Positions 14,312-53,209 of a stretch of DNA of 64,000 nt are shown here, piece by piece. The notes under the pieces are model-generated. The model was not told the DNA's origin, did no database searches, and worked only from the letters and a program-made list of their open reading frames with translations. Location of the stretch: NCBI GenBank assembly GCA_964575185.1, contig CAZNPW010000001.1:54081-118080 (forward strand), read 5' to 3'. The translations under genes and the position numbers were made by a program. The first letter of the stretch is position 1. Every line of letters begins with the position of its first letter. The DNA comes from an uncultured Exiguobacterium sp. GTDB lineage: Bacteria; Pseudomonadota; Alphaproteobacteria; Rhodobacterales; Rhodobacteraceae.

Positions 14312-14325
14312 CGGCTCCGCGGGGG

Positions 14326-14360
14326 GTTGCGCGTCCCGGCGCAGGCCGGGACCTCACCGC
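14326..14360. repeat. REP family A: hairpin GTCCCGGC-N4-GCCGGGAC
   Basis: GCGTCCCGGCGCAGGCCGGGACCTC, lying between the convergent TetR and nnr stops. Confidence 0.65.
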
Positions 14361-20053: not shown

Positions 20054-20107
20054 CTTCCCCCGCGCCTTCCGCCCTGCTAAGCCGCGCGAGTTATGCATGA
20101 GGCGGCC

Positions 20108-21358
20108 ATGGCCTTCCACCCGAAATCGGAGTTCCTGCACCATCTGGTCCGGCGCGGCTACCTGGCCGACTGCACCGACCTCGGTGCCCTGGACGACGCG
20201 CTGCGGGCGGGCGTGGTGCCGGCCTACATCGGCTATGACGCGACGGCGGCGAGCCTGCATGTCGGCCACCTGATGAACATCATGGTGCTGCGGCTGCTGC
20301 AGCGGTGCGGCGGCAAGCCGATCACGCTGATGGGAGGCGGCACGACCAAGGTGGGCGACCCGTCCTTCCGCGCCGAGGAGCGGCCGCTGCTGTCGGCGGC
20401 GCAGATCGACCAGAATATCGCCGGGATGCAGGCGGTGTTTTCGCGCTACCTCGCCTATGGCGAGGGGCCGACCGATGCGCTGATGCTGAACAATGCGGCG
20501 TGGCTCGACGGGCTCAACTACCTCGACTTCCTGCGCGACATCGGGCGGCATTTCAGCGTCAACCGGATGCTGAGCTTCGAGAGCGTGAAGTCGCGGCTGG
20601 ACCGCGAGCAGAGCTTGAGCTTCCTCGAGTTCAACTACATGATCCTGCAGGCCTACGACTTCCTCGAACTGCACCGCCGCCACGGCTGCCTGTTGCAGAT
20701 GGGCGGCAGCGACCAGTGGGGCAACATCATCAACGGGATCGACCTGACGCGCCGTGTGCTCGACCGCGAGATCTTCGGGCTGACGACGCCGCTTCTGACC
20801 ACGAGCGACGGGCGCAAGATGGGCAAGTCGGCGCAGGGCGCGGTCTGGCTGCGGGGCGACATGATGGCGCCCTATGCCTTCTGGCAGTTCTGGCGTAACA
20901 CGACCGACGCCGACACGGGGCGGTTCCTGAAGCTTTTCACCGAGCTGCCGGTGGAGGAGTGCGACCGGCTGGGGGCGCTCGGCGGGGCGGAGATCAACGA
21001 GGGCAAGCGCGTGCTCGCGAACGCGGTCACGGCGATGCTGCACGGCGCGGAGGCAGCGCGGACGGCGGAGGCGACCGCGCGCGAGGTGTTCGAGCGCGGC
21101 GGGGTGGGGGACGACCTGCCGACCCTGCACCTGCACGCGGGCGACGTGGCCGGGGGGATCAGCCTTGCGCATCTGTTCGTGCGGGCGGGGCTGGCGAAAT
21201 CGGGCAAGGACGCCAAGCGCCTGATTGCCGAGGGCGGGGCGCGGGTGAACGACGAGCCGATCATGGACGCGGGCCGCATCCTGCACGCGGGCGACCTGGC
21301 CGATCCGGTGAAGCTGACCGCCGGGCGCAAGCGGCACGCGCTGGTGGTGATGGGGTGA
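20108..21358 (+). CDS. tyrS: Tyrosine--tRNA ligase
   Basis: A HIGH-type motif (LHVGHL), a KMSKS-type motif (KMGKS) and a C-terminal S4 domain are present. Confidence 0.9.
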
Positions 21359-21371
21359 CCGTTTCGCTTGC

Positions 21372-21465
21372 GCGTCGCGCCCCGGCGTAGGCCGGGGCCT
21401 CTGCCCGGGCCGCCGGACCCGCCTGCGGGGTGAGGTCCCGGCCTTCGCCGGGACGCGGGGTTGCT
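21372..21465. repeat. REP family A composite unit, in inverted orientation
   Basis: Hairpins GCCCCGGC-GTAG-GCCGGGGC and GTCCCGGC-CTTC-GCCGGGAC, lying between convergent tyrS and pgm. Confidence 0.65.
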
Positions 21466-21476
21466 TCGCGGCCCGG

Positions 21477-25170
<3,694 letters not shown>

Positions 25171-25174
<4 letters not shown>

Positions 25175-26610
25175 CGCACGAGCTCCGCATAGAGCGCGGC
25201 ATAGGCGCGGGCGCTTTCGTCCCAGCCGACGGGCTGGCGCATCGCGTTCCTCTGTACCTGCGCCCAGGTCTTGCGGTCGGCGTGCAGGTCCACCAGCCGC
25301 CGCAGGGCCGTCGCGAAGGCCATGGCGTCGGTCGGGTGGAAGGTCACGCCCGTCGCCACCCCGGCCGCCAGCGCCGCGGGCGAGGCGTGGATCACCGTGT
25401 CGGCAAGGCCGCCCACGGCGGCGACCACGGGGATCGTGCCGTAGCGCAGCCCGTACATCTGGGTCAGCCCGCAGGGCTCGAACCGGCTGGGGACCAGCAC
25501 CGCGTCGGCCCCGGCGAACATCCGGTGCGACAGGCTTTCGTCATAGCCGATCCGCACCGCGACGCGGCCCGGATGCGCGGCCGCGAGCGCCCGCACCGCG
25601 CCCTCGAGCCCCGCGTCGCCCGAGCCCAGCACCACGAGGCCGCCGCCCGCGCGGACGAAATCCGGGATCACGGCGGGCAGGAGGTCGATCCCCTTCTGGT
25701 CGGTCAGCCGGCTGACGACGATGGCGAGCGGTCCCGGCACCTCCAGCCCGAACTCCGCCGCCAGCGCCGCGCGCGCGGCGGCCTTGCCCGCCATGGCCCC
25801 GGCCGAATAGTTCAGCACGTCGCCGTCGGTCTCGGGCGACCAGAGGTGGGTGTCGACCCCGTTCAGGATGCCGCTGACGACGCTTGCCCGGGCCGCGATC
25901 ACGCCCTGCAGGCCCATGCCGTATTCGGGCCGCTGCAGCTCGGTCGCGTAGGTCGGCGAGACGGTGGTGATCCGGTCGGCGGTGACCAGTCCCGCCTTCA
26001 GGCTGGAGAGCCCGCCGTAGTATTCCAGCACGCCCGCGTGGAAATCGTGCCAGGGCAGCCGCAGCACGTCCATCAGCGCCATCGGCGCCCAGCCCTGGAA
26101 GGCGATGTTGTGCACGGTGATGACCGACTTCACGCCCGCATCGCCGTGGTGGCGCAGGTAGGCCGGGGCGAAGCCCGCCTGCCAGTCATGCGCGTGCAGC
26201 ACCTGCGGCTTCCACCCCGCCGCACCGTGCCGGGCCACCTGCGCGGCCACCCAGGACAGCGCGGCGAAGCGCTGCGCGTTGTCGCCGAAATCGCCGCCGG
26301 GGCCGCCATACGGCCCGCCGTCGCGGTCGTAGAGGTGCGGCGCGTCGAGCAGCATCACCTGCATCCCCGCGACCTCGCCCGCGAAGACGCGCCCCTCGCC
26401 GCCCCAGAGGTCGGATTCGTGCCAGACCTCGGCCCAGCCTTCGAGGCGCGGGCGCAGGGCGCGGTAGGCGGGCAACAGCACCCGCATGTCCCAGCCCGCG
26501 CCCGCCAGCGCCGCGGGCAGCGCGCCCACCACGTCGGCCAGCCCGCCGGTCTTCACCAGCGGCACGCATTCGGAGGCGACCGACAGCACCCGTCCGTTCG
26601 CGGCCCCCAT
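25171..26610 (-). CDS. glgA: Glycogen synthase
   Basis: KTGGLADV motif. 479 aa. Confidence 0.9.
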
Positions 26611-26633
26611 CCTTTTCCCCCTTCATCTTCCCT

Positions 26634-26670
26634 CAAATATCCCGGGGGGTCCGGGGGGCTGGCCCCCCGG
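26634..26670. repeat. REP family E copy
   Basis: CAAATATCCCGGGGGGT followed by hairpin CCGGGGGG-ctgg-CCCCCCGG, in the glgC-glgA spacer. Confidence 0.6.
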
Positions 26671-26684
26671 TCCTGCCCGATCCG

Positions 26685-27956
26685 TCATCCCTTCGCCCGG
26701 GCGCGCGCGTTCAGCATGTCCTGCGTCACCAGCACGATCCCGCTGTCGGTGCGGCGGAACCACCTTGCGTCCTCGTCCGGGTCATCTCCGACCACCAGCT
26801 CTTCGGGAATCCGCACCCCGCGGTCGATCACGCAGTTCTTCAGCCGGGCCGAGCGCGCGACGTCGACGTACGGCAGCGCCACGACGTGGTCGAGCGTCGC
26901 GTAGCTGTGCGCGCGCACTCCGGTGAACAGCAGCGAGTTGCGCACCGCCGCGCCCGAGACGATGCAGTCGCCCGAGACCAGCGACGACACCGCCGAGCCC
27001 CGCCGCCCCTCCTCGTCATGCACGAACTTGGCCGGCGGGACGATCTCGGCATAGGTCCAGATCGGCCAGGCGTTGTCGTAGATGTCGAGCGCGGGGGTGA
27101 AGTCGGTCAGGTCGATGTTCGCCCGCCAGAAGGCGTCGACCGTGCCCACGTCGCGCCAGTAGGGTTCGGTCTCGATCCCCGAGCGCACGCAGCTGTCGGC
27201 GAAGCGGTGCGCGACCGCCTTGCCGTTCTTCACGATGTCGGGGATCAGGTCGTTGCCGAAATCGTGGCTCGAGTTGGTGTCGGCCATGTCGCGCAGGAGA
27301 AGCTCGCGCAGGAACTTCCAGTTGAAGACGTAGATGCCCATGCTGGCGAGCGCGTGGTCCGGGTCGCCCGGGATCGCGGGCGGGTCCTTCGGCTTTTCGA
27401 GGAACTGGGTGATGCGCATGTCGGCATCGACGTGCATCACGCCGAAGGCCGTGGCCTCCATCCGCGGCACGGTCAGGCAGCCGATGGTGACATCCGCCCC
27501 GGTAGCGACGTGCTGCTGCAGCATCACCTCGTAGTCCATCTTGTAGATGTGGTCGCCGGCCAGGATCACCGCGTATTCGATGTCGTAGTCGTCGACGATG
27601 TCGACGTTCTGCGCCACCGCGTCGGCGGTGCCGAGATACCACTTCTCTTCGCTCACGCGCTGCGATGCGGGCAGGATGTCGAGGTATTCGTTCCGTTCCG
27701 CCCGGAAGAAGTTCCAGCCGCGCTGCATGTGGCGGATGAGGGAATGCGCCTTGTATTGCGTGGCGATCGCCATCTTGCGGATGCCCGAGTTCAGCGCGTT
27801 CGACAGCGCGAAGTCGATGATCCGCGCCTTGCCGCCGAAGTAGACGGCGGGCTTGGCGCGGCGGTCGGTCAGCTCCTTCAGGCGGCTGCCGCGGCCGCCC
27901 GCCAGGACGAAGGCCATCGCCTGCGACGACAGCCGCGCGTTCGGTTTCGGTTGCAT
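26685..27956 (-). CDS. glgC: Glucose-1-phosphate adenylyltransferase
   Basis: [13 protein letters not shown] motif. The ATG at 27956 follows GGAGGG. Confidence 0.9.
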
Positions 27957-27981
27957 CTTCCCTCCCCGGAAAACTTCGCCA

Positions 27982-30150
27982 TCAGACATGCCTGAACCAG
28001 ATTGCCGACAGCGCGGGCAAGGTGACAAGCGCCGATTGCGCCTGCCCGTGCCAGCCCTGCGGTTCGGTGGAGACGCCTCCCGCGTTCCCCTTGCCCGCGC
28101 CGCCGTAGGTGGTGGCGTCGGTGTTGAGGATCTCCTCCCACCGCCCCGCCACGGGCAGGCCCAGCCGATACTGCCGTTCCACCGGCGTTAGGTTCACGAC
28201 GCAGACGACCGGCGGGTCGCCCGCCCGGCCCTTGCGCACCCAGGAATAGACCGACGCCTCGGCGTCGTTGCTTTCGATCCACTGGAAGCCCTCGGGGCGC
28301 GTGTCGTTGACGTGCAGCGCGGGGGTGTCGCGGTAAAGGCGGTTGAGGTCGCGGACCAGCGCCTGCACGCCGCGGTGTTCGGGCAGGTCGCACTGGTGCC
28401 AGTCGAGCGACTGGTTGTGGTTCCACTCGCGCCCTTGCGCGAACTCCTGCCCCATGAAGAGGAGCTTCTTGCCCGGGTGGCCCCACATGAAGCCGTAATA
28501 GGCGCGCAGGTTCGCGAACTTCTGCCAGGCGTCGCCGGGCATCCTGGCCAGCATCGACCCCTTGCCGTGCACGACCTCGTCATGGCTGATCGGCAGGATG
28601 TAGTTTTCCGACCAGGCGTAGTGCAGGCCGAAGGTCATCTGGTGGTGGTGGTAGCGGCGGTGGATCGGGTCGCGCGCCATGTAGGCCAGGGTGTCGTTCA
28701 TCCAGCCCATGTTCCACTTGAACCCGAAGCCGAGGCCGCCGTGGTTGACCGGGCGGCTGACGCCGGGGAAGGCGGTGCTTTCCTCGGCCACCGTCATGAT
28801 CCCCGGCACCTCGCCGTAGACGGCCACGTTCATCGCGCGCAGCATCGCGATGGCCTCGTAGTTTTCGCGGCCCCCGTCGCGGTTCGGGACCCACTCGCCC
28901 GACTTGCGGGAGTAGTCGCGGTAGAGCATCGAGGCCACCGCATCGACGCGCAGCCCGTCGACGTGGAACTCCTCCAGCCAATACAGCGCGTTCGAGACGA
29001 GGAAGTTCCGCACTTCCGTGCGCCCGTAGTTGTAGATCAGCGTGTTCCAGTCCTGGTGGAACCCCTCGCGCGGGTCGGCGTGTTCGTAAAGCGCGGTGCC
29101 GTCGAAGCGGCCCAACCCGTGCGCGTCGGTCGGGAAATGCCCCGGCACCCAGTCGAGGATCACGCCCAGGCCCCGCCGGTGCGCGGCATCGACGAAGGCC
29201 GCGAACTCGGGCGGGGTGCCGTGGCGGATCGTGGGGGCGTAGAGGCCGACGGGCTGGTAGCCCCAGCTTCCGTCGAAGGGGTATTCGCTGACCGGCAGAA
29301 GCTCGAGGTGGGTGAAGCCCATGTCGGCGGCGTAGCCGACGAGCTGGTCGGCCAGTTCGAGGTAGGAGAGCATCCGGTCGCCGGGCGCGCGCTTCCACGA
29401 CCCGAGGTGGACCTCGTAGACGCTGATCGGGGCGTCGACGTTCTGCAGGGCGGCGCGGCGGTCCATCCAGGCGGCGTCGTCCCATTTGCCCGTGATGCGG
29501 CGGACCACGGAGGCGTTTGCGGGGGGGTGCTCGCTGCCGAAGCCCACCGGGTCGGCCTTCAGCGGCAGAAGCGCGCCACCCGGCCCGCGGATCTCGTATT
29601 TGTAGGTCGCGCCTTCGCCGAGGCCGGGGATGAAGATCTCCCACACCCCCGTGGCGCCCCGCCGCCGCATCGGGTGGCGGCGGCCGTCCCAGATGTTGAA
29701 GTCGCCGACGACCGACACCCGTTCGGCGTTCGGCGCCCAAACGGCGAAATGGACGCCATCGACGCCCTCGTGGGTGATGCAATGCGCGCCCAGCACCTGC
29801 CAGAGGCGCTTGTGGGTGCCCTCGCTGAACAGGTATTCGTCCATCTCGCCCAGGACGGGGCCGAAGGCGAAGGGATCGTGGAACTCCCACGTCACGCCGC
29901 CGCCGCTCGCGCGCAGCCGGTAGGGCACCCGTTTCGGCAGGGTCGCGGTGAACAGCCCGGGGACGGGCTCGGCGTCGCAGGCGACGGGCTTGCCCGTGGC
30001 CGGCAGCACCTCGAGCCGGTCGGCCCCGGGCACGAAGGCGGTGACGGTCCAGGACTTGCCCCGACGGTGCGGGCCGAGCACCGCGAAGGGGTCGCCGTGG
30101 CGGCCCTCGGCGATGGCCCGGGCGGCACCCTCCTCGATCCGATCCGACAT
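27982..30150 (-). CDS. glgB: 1,4-alpha-glucan branching enzyme
   Basis: GH13_9 motifs. The start MSDRIEEG is preceded by GGAGGGAGG. Confidence 0.9.
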
Positions 30151-30185
30151 CGGCCCCTCCCTCAAAAGTCCGACGTGTCCGCGTG

Positions 30186-32612
<2,427 letters not shown>

Positions 32613-32673
32613 TACGGTTTCGCGCCCCCGGGGCGTCAAGCCCGGCGTGCGGATGCGAGTCGGCGGGCGCGCC

Positions 32674-32683
32674 AAAGCGCTTT
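32674..32683. promoter_or_regulatory. 10-bp palindrome AAAGCGCTTT, copy 1, upstream of the glg operon
   Basis: The same palindrome with the same TCA flank recurs at 32743..32752. Confidence 0.25.
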
Positions 32684-32742
32684 CATCCTAGGCACGATCA
32701 TCCCGCGAAGAAAAGCCCGCAAGTCGGGCAAAAGCGCCGTTC

Positions 32743-38086: not shown

Positions 38087-39904
38087 ATGGACATCCGCAA
38101 CATCGCCATCATCGCGCACGTCGACCATGGCAAGACGACGCTGGTCGACGAGCTCTTGAAGCAGTCGGGCGTCTACCGCGAGGGGCAGGCCGTGACCGAA
38201 CGCGCGATGGACAGCAACGACATCGAGCGCGAGCGGGGGATCACCATCCTGGCGAAGGCCACATCGGTGGAGTGGAAGGGCGTGCGGATCAACATCGTCG
38301 ACACCCCCGGCCACGCCGATTTCGGCGGCGAGGTGGAGCGGATCCTGAACATGGTCGACGGCGTCTGCCTGCTGGTCGATGCCGCCGAGGGGCCGATGCC
38401 GCAGACCAAGTTCGTGACCTCGAAGGCGCTGGCGCTGGGGCTGCGGCCGATCGTGGTGCTGAACAAGGTCGACAAGCCCGACGCCGAACCCGACCGGGCG
38501 CTGAACGAGGTGTTCGACCTGTTCGCCAACCTCGGGGCCGACGACGGCCAGCTCGACTTCCCGCATCTCTATGCGAGCGGCCGGGCGGGCTGGGCGGATG
38601 CCGAGCTCGACGGGCCGCGCCGCGACCTTGCGGCGCTGTTCGACCTGATCGTCGCGCACGTGCCCCCGCCCGCGCAGCAGGCGCGCGGCGGTGAGCCGTT
38701 CCGCATGCTGGCGACGACGCTCGCCTACGACCCCTACCTCGGGCGCATCCTGACGGGGCGGGTGGAGTCGGGGCGGCTGTCCGCCGGGGCGACGGTCAAG
38801 GCGCTGAGCCGCGACGGCGAGCGGATCGAGCAGTTCCGGGTGTCGAAGATCCTCGCCTTCCGCGGGCTGACGCAGACGGCGATCCCGGACGCGGAGCCCG
38901 GCGACATCGTGACGCTCGCGGGCATGGCCAGGGCGACCGTCGCCGACACGATCTGCGCGCCGGAGGTCGAGACCGCCCTGCCCGCCCAGCCCATCGACCC
39001 GCCGACGATCACGGTCACATTCGGGATCAACGATTCGCCGCTGGCGGGGCGCGACGGCGCGAAGGTCCAGTCGCGCGTGATCCGCGAGCGGCTGCTGCGC
39101 GAGAGCGAGAGCAACGTCGCGATCCGGGTGGCCGACACGCCCGGGGGGGAGGCCTTCGAGGTCTCGGGCCGGGGCGAGCTCCAGATGGGGGTGCTGATCG
39201 AGAACATGCGCCGCGAGGGGTTCGAGCTGTCGATCAGCCGCCCGCGCGTCATCCTGAAGGACGACGACGGGCAGCGGATGGAGCCCATCGAGGAGGTCAT
39301 CGTCGATGTCGACGACGAGTTCACCGGCGCGGTGATCGACAAGCTGACGGGCGAGCGGAAGGGCGACCTGGTCGAGATGAAGCCCGCGGGCACCGGCAAG
39401 ACGCGGATCATCGCGCATGTGCCGAGCCGCGGGCTGATCGGCTATCACGGGCAGTTCCTGACCGACACCCGCGGCACGGGCGTCCTGAACCGCATCTTCC
39501 ACGGCTGGGCCCCGCACAAGGGCCCGATCCTGGGCCGCCGGCAGGGCGTGCTGATCAGCATGGAGAACGGGGTGTCGGTGGCCTATGCGCTGTGGAACCT
39601 GGAAGAGCGCGGCAAGATGTTCATCGGCGCGCAGGAGGCCGTCTACGAGGGCATGATCATCGGCGAGCACGCGCGGGACAACGACCTCGAGGTCAACCCG
39701 CTGAAGGGCAAGAAGCTGACCAACGTGCGGGCCAGCGGCAACGACGAGGCGGTGCGGCTGACCACGCCGGTGCGGATGAGCCTGGAGGAGGCCATCGCCT
39801 ATATCGACGACGACGAGCTGGTCGAGGTGACGCCCAAGGCGATCCGGCTGCGCAAGCGCTTCCTCGACCCGAACGAGAGGAAGCGGATGTCGCGGGGGGA
39901 ATGA
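38087..39904 (+). CDS. typA: Translational GTPase TypA/BipA
   Basis: G1-G4 motifs are present ([18 protein letters not shown]). Confidence 0.95.
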
Positions 39905-39917
39905 GGGCCGCAGGAAA

Positions 39918-40010
39918 CCCCGCGTCCCGGCGCAGGCCGGGACCTCGCCCGTTCCACGGATGCCACGCTTGGCGGCACGGGTGAGGTCCCGGCCTCCGCC
40001 GGGACGCGTG
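39918..40010. repeat. REP family A: inverted pair of GTCCCGGC-N4-GCCGGGAC hairpins
   Basis: The hairpin at 39924..39943 has flanks CGC/CTC and the hairpin at 39986..40005 has flanks GAG/GCG, so the two copies face each other. Confidence 0.65.
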
Positions 40011-40013
40011 GCG

Positions 40014-40307
40014 TCAGGGGGTGACCTCCTCCACCACCACGAGGTCCCTGACGGCCGCGCCCCTGGCGTGCGCCAGCCCCTCCTGGTAGCGGGGCGAGCG
40101 GTAGCAGTCGACCGCCGCCTGCAGGCTGGGGAAGCGCGCCACCACGTTGCGGGCGCGGTCGCGGCCTTCGAGCTGGATGTAGGCCCCCCCGCGGGCGAGG
40201 AAGATTCCACCATGCGCGGCAATGGCTTCGGTGGCGATCTTCGCGTAACGCCCATAGGCCTCGGGGTCGGTGACCTCGACGTGGGCGATCCAGAGGGCGC
40301 TAGGCAT
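40014..40307 (-). CDS. DUF1330 domain protein
   Basis: 97 aa, MPSALWIAHVEVTDPEAY... Confidence 0.7.
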   Translation of the reverse strand: MPSALWIAHVEVTDPEAYGRYAKIATEAIAAHGGIFLARGGAYIQLEGRDRARNVVARFPSLQAAVDCYRSPRYQEGLAHARGAAVRDLVVVEEVTP

Positions 40308-40316
40308 CTCTGTCCC

Positions 40317-43001
40317 CTAGATTTTCTCAAGAGCATCGAGCGAAGGATTGATTACCTCCGCTTGAACCACGGCTAGCGCCTTCTCAAATCCTACAATCGA
40401 CGGAGCTCCGCCTTGGGCAAAATCTCGACGTCCACCTCCCCCTTTGCCCCCCATTTCTACAACAAGCCGCTTGACTATTGCAGAAGCATCAAGTGACTTC
40501 GCCAGCGCCGGGGTGACGCCGACCGCAACGGCAACGCTTCCATCGGTCTCGCTCGCAAGAATCACAAAGCCCTGCTCAATCGCCTCCAGCGTATTGTACA
40601 TAATGCTCCTCAATGCACTTGCCGAGATACCTTTGAGCCTAGCTGCCGAGTATTTAACGTTAAGCCGCACCTCTTTTGGAACAAGCTGTTCTTTCGCCTC
40701 TTCCTGAGCGAGCTTGCTACGCAATACATCAACCTCGTTCTGCAGGCTGCGGCGTTCGTCGGCGAGTGCGCGGACGCGGTCGACCACATCGCCCGCATGG
40801 GTCTTCAGCATCCCCGCGACCTCGGCCAGCCGCGCATCCTGCTGGCGGAGGTGGGCGAGCGCGGCCTGGCCCGTCAGCGCCTCGATCCGCCGCACCCCGG
40901 CGCTCGAGGCGCTGTCGTGGAGGAGGACGAAGGCCCCGATATCGCCGGTGCGCGCGACATGCGTGCCGCCGCAGAGTTCGAGCGAGTAGGTCGCGGCGTC
41001 GGCCCCCTTGCCGGAGCCAGGGAGGCTGCCCATCGAGACGACCCGCACCTCGTCGCCGTATTTCTCGCCGAAGAGCGCCTGCGCGCCGAGTGCGCGGGCG
41101 TCGTCGGGGGTCATGATGACGGTCGTGACGGGGGTGTTCTGGCGGACATAGGCGTTGACCTCGGCCTCCACCGCCGCGGTCTGGTCAGGCGTCATCGCGG
41201 TGCCGTGGCTGAAGTCGAAGCGCAGCCGGTCGGGCGCATTGAGCGAGCCGCGCTGGGCGACGTGGGGGCCGAGCGCGCGGCGCAGCGCCTCGTGCAGGAG
41301 GTGCGTGGCGGAGTGGTTGGCGCGGATCGCGCCGCGCCGGGCGCGGTCGACGGCGAGCTGCGCGCCCTGCCCGGCGACGATCTCGCCGTCGGTCACTTCG
41401 GCCAGGTGGACGGACAGGCCCTGCATCTTCCTCGTGTCGGTCACCCGCGCCGTGCCGGTGGCCGTGCGGAGCGTGCCGGTGTCGCCCACCTGCCCGCCCG
41501 ACTCGGCGTAGAAGGGCGTCTGGTTCAGCACAATCTGCACCGACTTTCCCGCCGTTGCGCGGTCGGTCGTGGCACCGTCCGCGATCAGGGCGAGGACCTG
41601 GCCCTCGGCGGTCTCGGTGTCGTAGCCGAGGAACTCGGTCGGGCCGTGGCGGTCGGCGAGGTCGAACCAGACGGCGGCGTCGGCGGTCTCGCCCGAGCCG
41701 GCCCAGGCGGCGCGGGCCTTGGCCTTCTGCTGCGCCATGGCGGCGTCGAAGCCCGCGACATCGACGCCGCGGCCCTGCTCGCGCAGCGCGTCCTGGGTGA
41801 GGTCGAGGGGGAAGCCGTAGGTGTCGTAGAGCCTGAAGGCCGCCGCGCCGGGCAGGTCGGTGCCTGCGGGGAGGCTTGCCACTTCGTCGTCGAGAAGCCG
41901 CAGGCCGCGGTCAAGTGTCTGGCGGAAGCGGGTTTCTTCCAGCCGCAGCGTCTCGGCGATCAGGGCCCGGCCGCGGGTGAGCTCGGGGTAGGCCGCGCCC
42001 ATCTCGGCCACGAGCGACGGGACGAGGCGGTGCATCACCGGGTCCTTCGCGCCGAGCATGTGGGCGTGGCGCATGGCGCGGCGCATGATGCGGCGCAGCA
42101 CGTAGCCGCGGCCTTCGTTCGAGGGCATCACCCCGTCGGCGATGAGGAACGAGGTCGAGCGCAGGTGGTCGGCGATGACGCGGTGGTGGATCCTTCCCGG
42201 GCCGTCGGGGTCGCTGGAGGTCGCGTGGGCGCTGGCCTCGATGAGGGCGCGCATCAGGTCGGTGTCGTAGTTGTCGTGGCGACCCTGGAGCAGCGCGCCG
42301 ATGCGTTCGAGCCCCATGCCGGTGTCGATCGACTGCATTTCCAAGGGCTTGAGGGTGCCGTCCGCGAACTGTTCGTTCTGCATGAAGACGTTGTTCCAGA
42401 TCTCGATGAACCGGTCGCCGTCCTCGCCCGGGCTGCCGGGGGGGCCGCCGGGGATGCTTTCGCCGTGGTCGAAGAAGATCTCGGTGCAGGGGCCGCAGGG
42501 GCCGGTCGGCCCCATGCGCCAGAAGTTGTCGTCCGACGCGATGCGGATGATGCGGTGGTCGGGCAGGCCTGCGATGCGCTTCCAGTAGCCTGCGGCCTCG
42601 TCGTCGGTGTAATAGACGGTGACGGTCAGGCGGTCGGCGGGGATGGCGAAGTCCTTCGTGAGGAGTTCCCAGGAAAAGGCGATGGCCTGTTCCTTGAAAT
42701 AGTCGCCGAAGCTGAAATTGCCCAGCATTTCGAAGAAGGTATGGTGCCGCGCGGTGTAGCCCACGTTGTCGAGGTCGTTGTGCTTGCCGCCCGCGCGGAC
42801 GCATTTCTGCGCGGTGGTGGCGCGGACGTAGTCGCGGGTCTCGACCCCGGTGAAGCAGTTCTTGAACTGCACCATGCCGGAGTTGGTGAACATCAGCGTC
42901 GGGTCGTTGCGGGGGACCAGCGGGCTCGAGTCGACCACGCGGTGGCCGTTGCGCTGGAAATAGGCGAGGAAGGTGGAGCGGATGTCGTTGAGGGAGGGCA
43001 T
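40317..43001 (-). CDS. alaS: Alanine--tRNA ligase, with a compositionally foreign 3' module
   Basis: 894 aa. The N-terminus is [20 protein letters not shown]. The editing-domain HxxxH and CxxxH motifs and the C-terminal GGKGGGR motif are present. Confidence 0.95.
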
Positions 43002-43077
43002 GGGCCGCCTTGGAACGGAAGGGTCGCGGCTGACATACGCCGCGGTCCGGGACCTGTCCACAGGGGGTGTTCCGGCC

Positions 43078-43121
43078 CGTCTTCCGCGCGTCTTCCGGGC
43101 GTCTTCCGGGCGTCTTCCGCC
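43078..43121. repeat. Tandem repeat, 4 x 11 bp (CGTCTTCCGSN)
   Basis: Unit starts at 43078, 43089, 43100 and 43111. The array lies in the recA-alaS spacer, 77-120 nt upstream of the alaS ATG. Confidence 0.8.
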
Positions 43122-43334: not shown

Positions 43335-44405
<1,071 letters not shown>

Positions 44406-47647: not shown

Positions 47648-49102
47648 TCACAGGAGGGCCTCAAGCTTTATCGGGTCGAATAGACTTGTGGGCTCCAGAT
47701 CGACTGTGCCGTCCTTCGCCATTCGCACTTCAACTCCAGCGCCAGCGAGGCGCTCTTTCATCAAGTCAATCGCTGCGAAGTCTCGTGTTTGTCGCGCCAT
47801 GGCATAGGCCACCGACATTCGGATGTGAAATGGATCGAGCAGCTCCCGATGTCCGGCGCGGTTCGTTCGCCGTCGCAGGAGGAGGTCGAATAGTCCCACG
47901 GCATCCAATGCGGAGGCTAGCTCGGTCGCTTTTGCATGAAGTGTGGCCGGGTCATTCGGACCAACTTCTCCACGCGCAATCTTCTCGAGCAATGATGCCT
48001 CACCGTGCAACGCTTGCAGGGCCCTGTAAGTGTCCAAGTCCTCGGAGAGCGAGTCACGGACGCCCTGCGGCAAGAAAGCTGCTCGTCCTGGCGGTGAAAC
48101 CCCGAGATCCGCGATGATCTTCATCGCAGGCAAAAGCGCATCAAGCCGGTTTTCCGCCTCCCGCGCCTTCGCCTCGGTCCAGTCCATCGGGCTGCGGTAG
48201 TGGGTCATCAGCATCACATACCGGATCACCTCGCCCGGCACGCCGCGGTCCAGCAGATCGCGGACGGTGAAGAAGTTGCCGAGGGATTTCGACATCTTCT
48301 TGCCCTCGACCAGCAGCATCTCGTTGTGGACCCAGATTCCGGCGAAGGGTTCGCCCGGGTGGGCGCAGCGGCTTTGCGCGATCTCGTTCTCGTGGTGGGG
48401 GAACTGGAGGTCGATGCCGCCGCCGTGGATCTGGAAGGCGCCGCCGAGCAGGTCGCGGGCCATCGCGCTGCATTCGATGTGCCAGCCGGGGCGGCCGCGG
48501 CCCCAGGGGCTGTCCCAGCCGGGCAGGTCGGGGGTGGAGGGTTTCCAGAGGACGAAGTCGAGCGGGTCCTCCTTGTAGGGCGCGACCTCGACCCGCGCGC
48601 CCGCGATCATGTCGTCGAGGCTGCGCCCCGAGAGCGCGCCGTATTCGGCGTAGCGGCGGACGCGGAAGAGGACGTGGCCCTGGGCCGCGTAGGCGAAGCC
48701 GTCGGCCTGAAGCCGGGCGATCATCGCGATCATCTGCGCGACGTAGTCGGTCGCCCGCGGCATGTGGTCGGGGGGCAGCGCGCCGAGCGCGGCCATGTCG
48801 GCGAGATACCAGCCGATCGTCTCGTCGGTGATGTCGCGGATCGGGCGGCCGGTCGCGGTGGCGCGCGCGTTGATCTTGTCGTCGATGTCGGTGAAGTTGC
48901 GGACGTAGGTGACGGCCCCGGCCCCGTGGACGTGGCGCAGGAGCCGGTAGAGCACGTCGAACACCACCACCGGCCGCGCGTTGCCGAGATGCGCGCGGTC
49001 GTAGACGGTGGGGCCGCAGACATACATGCCGATGCGGCCCTGCGCGTCGGGGAGGACCGGCTGTTTCGTCCTGGTCGGCGTGTTCCACAGCCTGATCGTC
49101 AT
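47648..49102 (-). CDS. cysS: Cysteine--tRNA ligase, with a compositionally atypical 3' module
   Basis: A HIGH-type motif (HLGN) and KMSKS are present. 484 aa. Confidence 0.9.
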
Positions 49103-52735: not shown

Positions 52736-52770
52736 GGCGCGGGTCCGGGGACCGCTCCGGGCCATTGGGG

Positions 52771-53160
52771 TGCCCGCGTCCCGGCGGAGGTTGGGACCTC
52801 TGCTTCGCCGCTGTGAGCGCGGAGGCCCCGGCCTGCGCCGGGGCGCGGGGTTTTTTGGGAGGGGCCGCAAGTATGTCCGCGTCCCGGCGGAGGGACCTCT
52901 GCTTCGCCGCTGTGCGCGCGGAGGCCCCGGCCTGCGCCGGGGCGCGGGGTTTTTTCGAGGGGCCGCAGGAATGCCCGCGTCCCGGCGGAGGCCGGGACCT
53001 CTGCCCGGCCGCTGTCAGCGCGGAGGCCCCGGCCTGCGGCGGGGCGCGGGGTTTTTTTGGGGGAGGGGCCGCAGGAATGCCCGCGTCGCGGCGGAGGCCG
53101 GGACCTCTGCTTCGCCGCTGTCAGCGCAGAGGCCCCGGCCTGCGCCGGGGCGCGGGGTTC
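52771..53160. repeat. Tandem array of 4 composite REP family A units (about 98-106 bp each)
   Basis: Unit starts at 52771, 52874, 52972 and 53078. Each unit has hairpin GTCCCGGC-GGAG-GCCGGGAC and hairpin CCCCGGC-CTGC-GCCGGGG. Units 1-3 end in GGGGTTTTTT. Confidence 0.8.
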
Positions 53161-53209
53161 TGCGGCCCGGACCGGCGGGGAGGCCGGGCGCCGGAACGCC
53201 TGACGCGGA

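Follow-up and report, generated by a model that had tools for sequence, protein, structure and literature searches.

We analyzed a 64,000-nucleotide (nt) stretch of DNA from a member of the Rhodobacteraceae (contig CAZNPW010000001.1, positions 54,081 to 118,080; hereafter, the window) and found that its alaS gene, which encodes alanyl-tRNA synthetase (AlaRS), is a mosaic gene; i.e., composition and nearest relatives both change abruptly within one reading frame. We consider it probable that the last 430 nt at the 3′ end of this gene represent an allele of an AlaRS tail that is rare, AT-richer, and hypervariable, that is distributed patchily in Rhodobacterales, and that was acquired by recombination. 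An earlier inspection of the letters, made with no database search (the sequence-only reading), had described the end of alaS as an abrupt, in-frame, domain-sized block, and the steps in composition and similarity reported here indicate that the mosaic is genuine.

Codons 1–752 of alaS had a G+C content of 0.704 and a G+C content at third codon positions (GC3) of 0.938; the corresponding values for the last 142 codons were 0.533 and 0.521. Measured per 20 codons, GC3 ranged from 0.70 to 1.00 (mostly at least 0.9) up to codon 740, was 0.75 at codons 741–760, and then remained between 0.35 and 0.70 to the stop codon. A two-segment maximum-likelihood fit placed the change point after codon 756 (window position 40733), with a log-likelihood gain of 71. 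The background was obtained from 931 segments of 140 codons in the 36 other genes of the window (mean GC3 0.955, standard deviation 0.019, minimum 0.879), and the alaS module lay 22 standard deviations under this mean. Chance was excluded as the cause of the step because no background segment fell below 0.879. The number of G or C letters per 60 nt was 28–33 over most of 40321–40740 and 44–48 from 40741 onward. The hand counts in the sequence-only reading (31, 33, and 29 over 40321–40500, and 44 for 40741–40800) were identical to our recount, and the codons quoted there on the two sides of the step (CTG CAG AAC GAG and GTT GAT GTA TTG CGT) were correct; its count of 29/60 for 40681–40740 was off by one (30 on recount), and it did not mention a richer patch at 40501–40560 (42/60). 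It had placed the step at 40745, after codon 752. The step itself is real, as GC3 computed across 40317..43001 falls from 0.938 to 0.521, and the fitted change point lies four codons further on. The patch at 40501–40560, which has a native-like G+C content, covers a conserved core motif, and the other tail alleles described below have no such patch; conversion or amelioration on a small scale could account for it.

The similarity of AlaRS to its relatives showed a comparable step. Residues 1–752 were 73–81% identical to AlaRS proteins of Rhodobacterales (Paracoccus, Rhodobacter, Pseudorhodobacter, Phaeovulum, and others), whereas the last 142 residues were 30–35% identical to those same proteins. 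That is, the two parts differ in their similarity partners when they are compared separately, as the sequence-only reading had anticipated. Relatives that share 80% identity in the N-terminal part ordinarily retain approximately 54% in the tail. Averaged over 17 relatives, identity decreased from 0.67 at residues 741–760 to 0.14 at residues 761–780. A tail GC3 within 0.13 of that of the rest of alaS was found in 79 of 80 genome loci.

The complete protein is an alanine--tRNA ligase. It matched the NCBIfam alaS equivalog TIGR00344 from end to end with 915 bits (cut-off 457; residues 6–865, profile positions 1–846 of 847), and it contained the class II catalytic domain tRNA-synt_2c (PF01411, residues 6–554, E = 1.5e-211), the editing-associated domain tRNA_SAD (PF07973, residues 652–707), and DHHA1 (residues 781–883). 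Two published reports describe C-Ala, the C-terminal domain of AlaRS, as binding the elbow of tRNA(Ala) and supporting dimerization (PMC8887476, PMC10036535). The tail module by itself matched Pfam DHHA1 (PF02272, E = 7e-11), and PDB entry 3G98, the C-Ala of Aquifex AlaRS, was found by sequence (E = 8e-5). An AlphaFold model of the tail, built with 37 sequences, had a predicted local distance difference test score (pLDDT) of 90.6 and consisted of a long helix (residues 9–45) followed by a beta/alpha globular fold. A Foldseek search with this model returned AlaRS C-terminal domains first, namely 3g98_A (template modeling score 0.89, target-normalized; root-mean-square deviation 1.4 Å), 2zvf, 6nly, and 3wqy. 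The glycine-rich loop characteristic of C-Ala, GGxGGGG(R/K)xD, is present in the sequence, and the alaS junction falls inside the coiled-coil helix rather than at a loop. The earlier statement that the tail retains C-Ala architecture and its motif therefore agrees with the domain match, the structural match, and the modeled fold. These results show that the tail is a divergent C-Ala domain with an intact fold, and the chimeric enzyme is presumably active. Two proteins annotated as "DHHA1 domain-containing protein", P0211 (Jhaorihella thermophila, 3.19-Mb contig, 228 amino acids (aa)) and P0243 (Sulfitobacter pacificus, 3.58-Mb contig, 256 aa), consist solely of the SAD and C-Ala parts of AlaRS; they may stem from an alaS gene that is split or frameshifted, or represent the tail as a free-standing copy.

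We searched for the origin of the tail with an exhaustive HMMER comparison against 1.84 billion representatives standing for approximately 15 billion proteins. No match exceeded 48% identity among these representatives, and the two best matches were alaS genes of Rhodobacterales that share the junction, the drop in GC3, and the DUF1330 neighbor with the window. In a profile search of 5.8 billion clusters, only P0005, P0006, and P0160 exceeded the ordinary background. The 429-nt block had no match in collections of plasmid and phage DNA, and a scan of viral contigs with the allele alignment gave no match either. No donor lineage could be named, as the best identity was 48% and the best matches were themselves chimeric. 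The sequence-only interpretation is supported in part: its "foreign", if a distant donor is meant, and its "recent", in a genome for which no close relative was found, are not borne out as stated. Two other searches yielded candidates that we rejected. A word-indexed protein search with the tail alone returned only four ordinary Rhodobacterales fragments, through common GGKGGGG words, and a scan of metagenome contigs with degenerate patterns returned 80 loci that were ordinary AlaRS genes of other taxa (many with approximately 30% GC), with no GC3 drop greater than 0.15.

Five other carriers of such a tail were found, four in metagenomes of the Joint Genome Institute (JGI) (L083, L084, L085, and L166) and one in a Silicimonas metagenome-assembled genome (MAG) that is a GTDB species representative (L036, JAJDOD010000072.1). 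They trace back to the two best HMMER matches, one further match of the profile search, and one of the genome loci. All five have a Rhodobacterales-type alaS in which GC3 drops by 0.25–0.45 from the homologous junction to the stop codon, followed by a native DUF1330 gene. The GC3 of the carriers' modules was approximately 0.3–0.6 irrespective of the GC3 of host or flank (0.75–0.95). The tail alleles were 32–52% identical to one another, irrespective of the relatedness of their flanks, and this class of variant tail occurred in approximately 1/50 of the sampled Rhodobacterales species. BipA of L083 was 89% identical to that of ordinary Rhodobacter and Pseudorhodobacter loci and 82% identical to that of the window; likewise, the N-terminal part of the window AlaRS was 81% identical to that of ordinary Paracoccus and 77% to that of L083. 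By DUF1330 protein, the nearest locus to L036 was L027, from another Silicimonas MAG, and L027 does not figure among the loci in which GC3 drops. The distribution of the variant tails is patchy, with the ordinary relatives of each carrier at least as close to it as the other carriers. We found no account of such an alaS or cysS polymorphism in the literature.

The relationships of the tail alleles were discordant with those of their flanks in L083, L084, and L085. L083 and L085 share one tail allele; 10 of 387 nt differ in the module (2.6%), whereas DUF1330 and bipA together differ at 221 of 2106 nt (10.5%; Fisher p = 3e-8). Synonymous differences were present in 6 of 128 module codons versus 143 of 606 flank codons, an approximately five-fold deficit. 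L084, whose flanks are as close to L083 as those of L085 (83–88% nt and 90–92% aa identity), has a different module, with 50% nt and 42% aa identity to that of L083 and sharp breakpoints. Nucleotide similarity between L083 and L084 ended approximately eight codons before NEV and resumed exactly at the ATG of DUF1330, and the DUF1330 proteins were 92% identical although the modules were 42% identical. A constantly fast clock is contradicted because the module shared by L083 and L085 is too similar and the module of L084 too divergent. The comparison suggests that the block was transferred or replaced as a unit among these three loci.

On the explanation that we favor, the alaS gene of the window would have received the allele from another alaS of the Rhodobacterales type through homologous recombination, with a crossover on either side of the block: one in the conserved stretch of codons that surrounds ERRxLxNEV, and one either at the stop codon of alaS or where the 5′ end of DUF1330 is conserved. 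This would yield a chimeric, complete AlaRS, in which a native catalytic, recognition, and editing body carries a divergent, correctly folded tail. The low GC content may have persisted because the alleles are too divergent to recombine internally; i.e., unable to form heteroduplex, they would escape the GC-biased conversion or selection that leads to a GC3 of approximately 0.95. Several points weigh against this explanation. As no close relative of this genome was found, recombination into the lineage of the window is proposed by analogy with L083, L084, and L085 only. The variant tails are about as far from ordinary Rhodobacterales tails (median identity 36–44%) as from one another (32–52%), and we do not claim a single founding event for this reason. 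A neighbor-joining tree joined the variant tails in one clade outside the ordinary alphaproteobacterial tails, and this grouping could result from long-branch or compositional attraction. Finally, beyond the six contigs, no allele pool or reservoir was found in the phages, plasmids, viral contigs, and window that were searched.

As an alternative to recombination, the lineage's own tail may have evolved rapidly in place, through relaxed or diversifying selection and AT-biased mutation, with no transfer. We regard this as unlikely. It would explain why the variant tails are about equidistant from ordinary tails and from one another, like independent long branches, and why their core motifs and fold are kept. 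The absence of an identifiable donor is also consistent with it, as is the homologous region of cysS, which evolves fast even in ordinary lineages (34–38% identity) and shows a mild GC3 dip in a 71%-GC genome. However, divergence between L083 and L085 is four times lower in the module than in the flanks, and the module of L084 is 42% identical to that of L083 although the flanks are similar. In addition, both boundaries are sharp and coincide with the loss of nucleotide similarity, and ordinary alaS tails show no GC3 dip. Plain relaxation is further opposed by the intactness of all six tails.

The recent replacement proposed in the sequence-only reading, taken as a single transfer of a domain-sized fragment from a distant, lower-GC organism outside Rhodobacterales, we consider quite unlikely. 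The two crossovers of such a transfer would have to occur without homology, and the recurrence of the same breakpoints in five other assemblies speaks against this; furthermore, a library of approximately 15 billion proteins contained nothing above the 48% identity mentioned above, and its best matches were chimeric Rhodobacterales alaS genes. In favor of a distant source, the GC3 step is abrupt, without visible amelioration in a genome of 72% GC, the neighbor-joining tree sets the variant tails outside ordinary alphaproteobacterial tails, and the motif RxDFAQ, which takes the place of RPDMAQ, is common in other alphaproteobacteria, e.g., on SAR11-like contigs.

It is very unlikely that the block is a relic left by a mobile element that, on integrating at the 3′ end of alaS, brought along its own version of the gene end. 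Replacement of gene ends by integrating elements is well known, and the block does end at the stop codon; however, the native DUF1330 gene follows after 9 nt (0–4 nt in the other alleles), and Pfam detected no integrase, phage, or transposase domain in the genes scanned between approximately 33 and 54 kb. The locus has neither an adjoining integrase or island nor a displaced original end, no second alaS end was present in the window, and there were no phage, plasmid, or viral-contig matches.

Chimerism of assembly or binning, in which reads of two organisms were joined, is hardly credible. Assemblers do struggle at these sites, as the contigs of L085, L167, L169, L170, and L171 begin at or near junctions. 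Nevertheless, the frame of alaS is continuous, native sequence resumes past the block in the same contig, and an identity of approximately 50% at the nucleotide level leaves no common k-mers for a double switch. The same architecture was observed in six independent assemblies with different tail alleles, and chimerism is untenable because these come from different projects.

Targeted hypermutation, e.g., by a diversity-generating retroelement acting on the 3′ end, would suit the position of the block and its extreme diversity, and we give it practically no weight: the window contains no template repeat, the genes scanned contain no reverse-transcriptase domain, the 430-nt block has diverged at all codon positions, and the alleles of L083 and L085 are nearly identical. 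Neither the block nor its flanks are repeated elsewhere in the window; local silent cassettes and a template repeat are ruled out because the window holds no second copy of the block.

A parallel composition pattern was observed in cysS, 7 kb away, as the sequence-only reading had noted. GC3 was 0.950 in codons 1–320 and 0.616 in the last 164 codons, and the change point fell after codon 316, at the end of the catalytic domain. With a query composed of a 60-residue native flank and the cysS module, five clusters (205–232 bits) rose above the ordinary background (at most 160 bits). GC3 dropped right after HY(R/S)KPMDWTE in L167, L168 (wastewater), and L169/L170; the P0278 cluster, which holds L169 and L170, includes a member annotated as Albidovulum. 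The ordinary cysS genes of L171 and L044 showed a mild GC3 dip or none. The tail region of CysRS is 34–38% identical among ordinary Rhodobacterales, and its GC3 dips mildly in one ordinary genome of 71% GC; the contrast in cysS is weaker than that in alaS because this region evolves fast even in ordinary members of the order. The case for allele exchange made for alaS is not extended to cysS. Only L044 among the 80 alaS loci has cysS nearby. The third synthetase gene of the window, tyrS, had a GC3 of 0.80–1.00 throughout, including its C-terminal domain; the phenomenon is therefore not common to every synthetase. In the window, a module was present in two of the three synthetase genes versus none of the 36 other genes, for which a post-hoc count gives approximately 3 chances in 1225. 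As to the neighborhood of cysS, cimA lies just downstream in the window, L167, L168, and L169/L170; in L167 and L169, a short unannotated open reading frame (ORF) separates the two genes. No cimA lies downstream of the ordinary cysS of L171.

We also entertained, as a tentative idea that we hold to be improbable, that the tRNA-binding domains of AlaRS and CysRS in some Rhodobacterales are under long-term diversifying (negative frequency-dependent) selection and draw on a pool of interchangeable, deeply diverged cassettes, in the manner of flagellin and restriction-specificity domains. If so, an antagonist, e.g., a toxin, a mimic of tRNA, or a protein of phage origin, would be acting through these domains. 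The low GC3 would then be a by-product of alleles too divergent to recombine, and these genes would provide a within-gene control for the GC3 of 0.95.

Several known systems resemble the alaS module in part. Aminoacyl-tRNA synthetases tolerate foreign whole-gene replacements unusually well. Here, unlike in whole-gene transfer, only the C-terminal accessory domain was replaced, and the catalytic body follows the lineage of the organism. In the polymorphic toxins CdiA-CT and Rhs-CT, a conserved body is followed, after a sharp junction at a conserved peptide, by a lower-GC swappable C-terminal module and a small downstream gene. The alaS case differs in that the module is a tRNA-binding domain and not a toxin and in that the downstream DUF1330 gene does not co-vary with it (92% identity between L083 and L084 where the modules have 42%). 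The central segments of flagellin and the target-recognition segments of the type I restriction gene hsdS are extremely diverse, often AT-richer, and swapped horizontally as a unit. The AlaRS tails resemble the hsdS target-recognition domains and the flagellin central regions (for flagellin, see PMC7018530) in combining conserved ends with a diverse segment. Those proteins are surface-exposed or serve in defense and have an obvious diversifying agent, whereas AlaRS is a cytoplasmic housekeeping enzyme that is not known to have one. Segmentally variable genes, which include aminoacyl-tRNA synthetases, have variable and conserved parts with no general difference in GC content (Zheng, Roberts, and Kasif 2004, PMC387263). 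The alaS gene is similar in that its catalytic body is conserved and the attached region, which touches the tRNA at its distal parts, is poorly conserved (PMC387263); it differs in its GC3 drop of 0.4, sharp breakpoints, discrete alleles that are shared or replaced among related strains, and presence in approximately 1/50 of the sampled Rhodobacterales species. Mosaic genes also arise by intragenic recombination after partial gene transfer, e.g., penA in Neisseria (PMC10926701); methods of detection are treated in PMC3241670. As in such mosaics, a chromosomal core gene was partially replaced in frame, with crossovers in conserved flanks and part-specific partners; unlike in penA, no donor species or known selective agent can be named, and a whole accessory domain with approximately 50% nt divergence was exchanged instead of patches with 5–20%. 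The sharp GC3 step, the discrete shared or replaced alleles, the rarity, and the occurrence in two synthetases of one genome are new, and the pattern is closer to that of flagellin, hsdS, or polymorphic-toxin cassettes than to that of a housekeeping gene.

Essential translation enzymes are usually taken as stable vertical markers. In these bacteria, an accessory domain of AlaRS (and of CysRS, in parallel) behaves as a strain-variable cassette would, and the GC3 of the module stays approximately 40 points below that of the rest of the same transcript in hosts with 60–72% GC. Were selection the driver of this exchange, the tRNA-binding tails of synthetases would have to be under attack by some natural agent. 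Were the exchange neutral, the AT-richness of variable DNA could be studied here in a clean natural experiment, as the two sides of the junction do not differ in expression, strand, or replication context. The modules also break metagenome assemblies at the junction and would distort phylogenies based on alaS or cysS. Contigs begin inside alaS or cysS, at the junction or at most approximately 80 codons upstream of it, in L085:1-10, L167:1-33, L169:1-3, L170:1-3, and L171:1, which suggests that assemblers break on strain-level allele differences.

The positions of the features are listed in Table 1. The sequence-only reading was right that the low-GC block ends at the TAG stop codon and that DUF1330, with native composition, begins after 9 nt. 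Its further claim that the ribosome-binding site and spacer are native could not be demonstrated: a Shine-Dalgarno-like GGGGA overlaps the alaS stop, the ATG of DUF1330 (40305–40307) follows the 9-nt spacer, and no conservation of the spacer is seen from allele to allele, similarity at the nucleotide level returning at this ATG. In the other alleles, DUF1330 starts 0–4 nt after alaS, and its Shine-Dalgarno sequence sits in the last codons of the variable block. DUF1330 had a GC3 of 0.90, and its protein was 80–83% identical to the homologues of relatives. It follows alaS also in L081–L085, L166, and L036. The gene order recA-alaS-DUF1330-bipA is common to the window and L083, and the synteny of bipA also fits L085.

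Table 1. Features of the alaS region and of the other synthetase genes in the window.
Feature	Position	Strand	Basis
alaS coding sequence, 894 aa, single unbroken frame	40317..43001	minus	ORF and translation
alaS native part, codons 1-752 (catalytic, tRNA-recognition, and editing domains and first half of coiled coil)	40746..43001	minus	GC3 0.938; identity to relatives
5′ junction zone, codons 746-756, within coiled-coil helix	40733..40766	minus	GC3 change point and fall in identity
Low-GC variable module, 142 codons (second half of coiled coil and globular C-Ala, DHHA1-like)	40320..40745	minus	GC3 0.521
GC-richer patch in module, 42/60 G+C, encodes conserved core motif	40501..40560	minus	Read off sequence
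alaS TAG stop (40317-40319) and 9-nt spacer GGGACAGAG	40308..40319	minus	Sequence
DUF1330 gene, 97 aa, native composition, 3′ anchor of variable block	40014..40307	minus	Pfam PF07045, E = 1.5e-32
Probable alaS promoter: TGGACA, 16-nt spacer, GTATGT, 59 nt upstream of ATG	43033..43060	minus	Conservation only
recA, native composition, upstream neighbor of alaS	43335..44405	minus	Pfam RecA, E = 3e-145
bipA/typA, convergent with DUF1330	38087..39904	plus	Pfam GTP_EFTU, BipA_C
cysS coding sequence, 484 aa	47648..49102	minus	TIGR00435, 406 bits (cut-off 340); Pfam catalytic domain 20-316
cysS low-GC module, codons ~317-484 (anticodon-binding region and tail)	47651..48154	minus	GC3 drop
tyrS, third aminoacyl-tRNA synthetase gene in window, module-free control	20093..21358	plus	Pfam tRNA-synt_1b

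The hexamer pair TGGACA/GTATGT is the probable promoter of alaS, as judged from conservation of its sequence; TGGACA(G), followed by a TAAAC-like hexamer, recurs in L083 and L001–L008 at the corresponding position ahead of alaS. A scan of 39800–41300 found no promoter-like or terminator-like sites, and the window contained no tRNA genes and no Rfam families. Upstream of the probable promoter, and adjoining it (TGGACA at 43055–43060), four tandem 11-nt units containing GGAAGACG on the alaS strand were present at 43078–43118. The GGAAGACG array was not found upstream of alaS in L083, L036, or seven ordinary relatives; a microsatellite or an array of regulator-binding sites might be involved.

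A family of GC-rich palindromic repeats, similar to repetitive extragenic palindromic (REP) elements and with the core GCGTCCCGGCG(C/G)AGGCCGGGACCTC, occurred at 14314–14355, 21376–21462, 39905–40011, and 52759–53174. Two copies in inverted orientation lie between bipA and DUF1330, and a block at 52.8–53.2 kb consists of approximately four tandem units of about 100 nt. The window otherwise offers an ordinary context, with a gene for an RTX-repeat protein at 919–2040 on the plus strand and a complete glycogen cluster at 21477–32687 on the minus strand (phosphorylase, branching enzyme, ADP-glucose pyrophosphorylase, synthase, debranching enzyme, and phosphoglucomutase).

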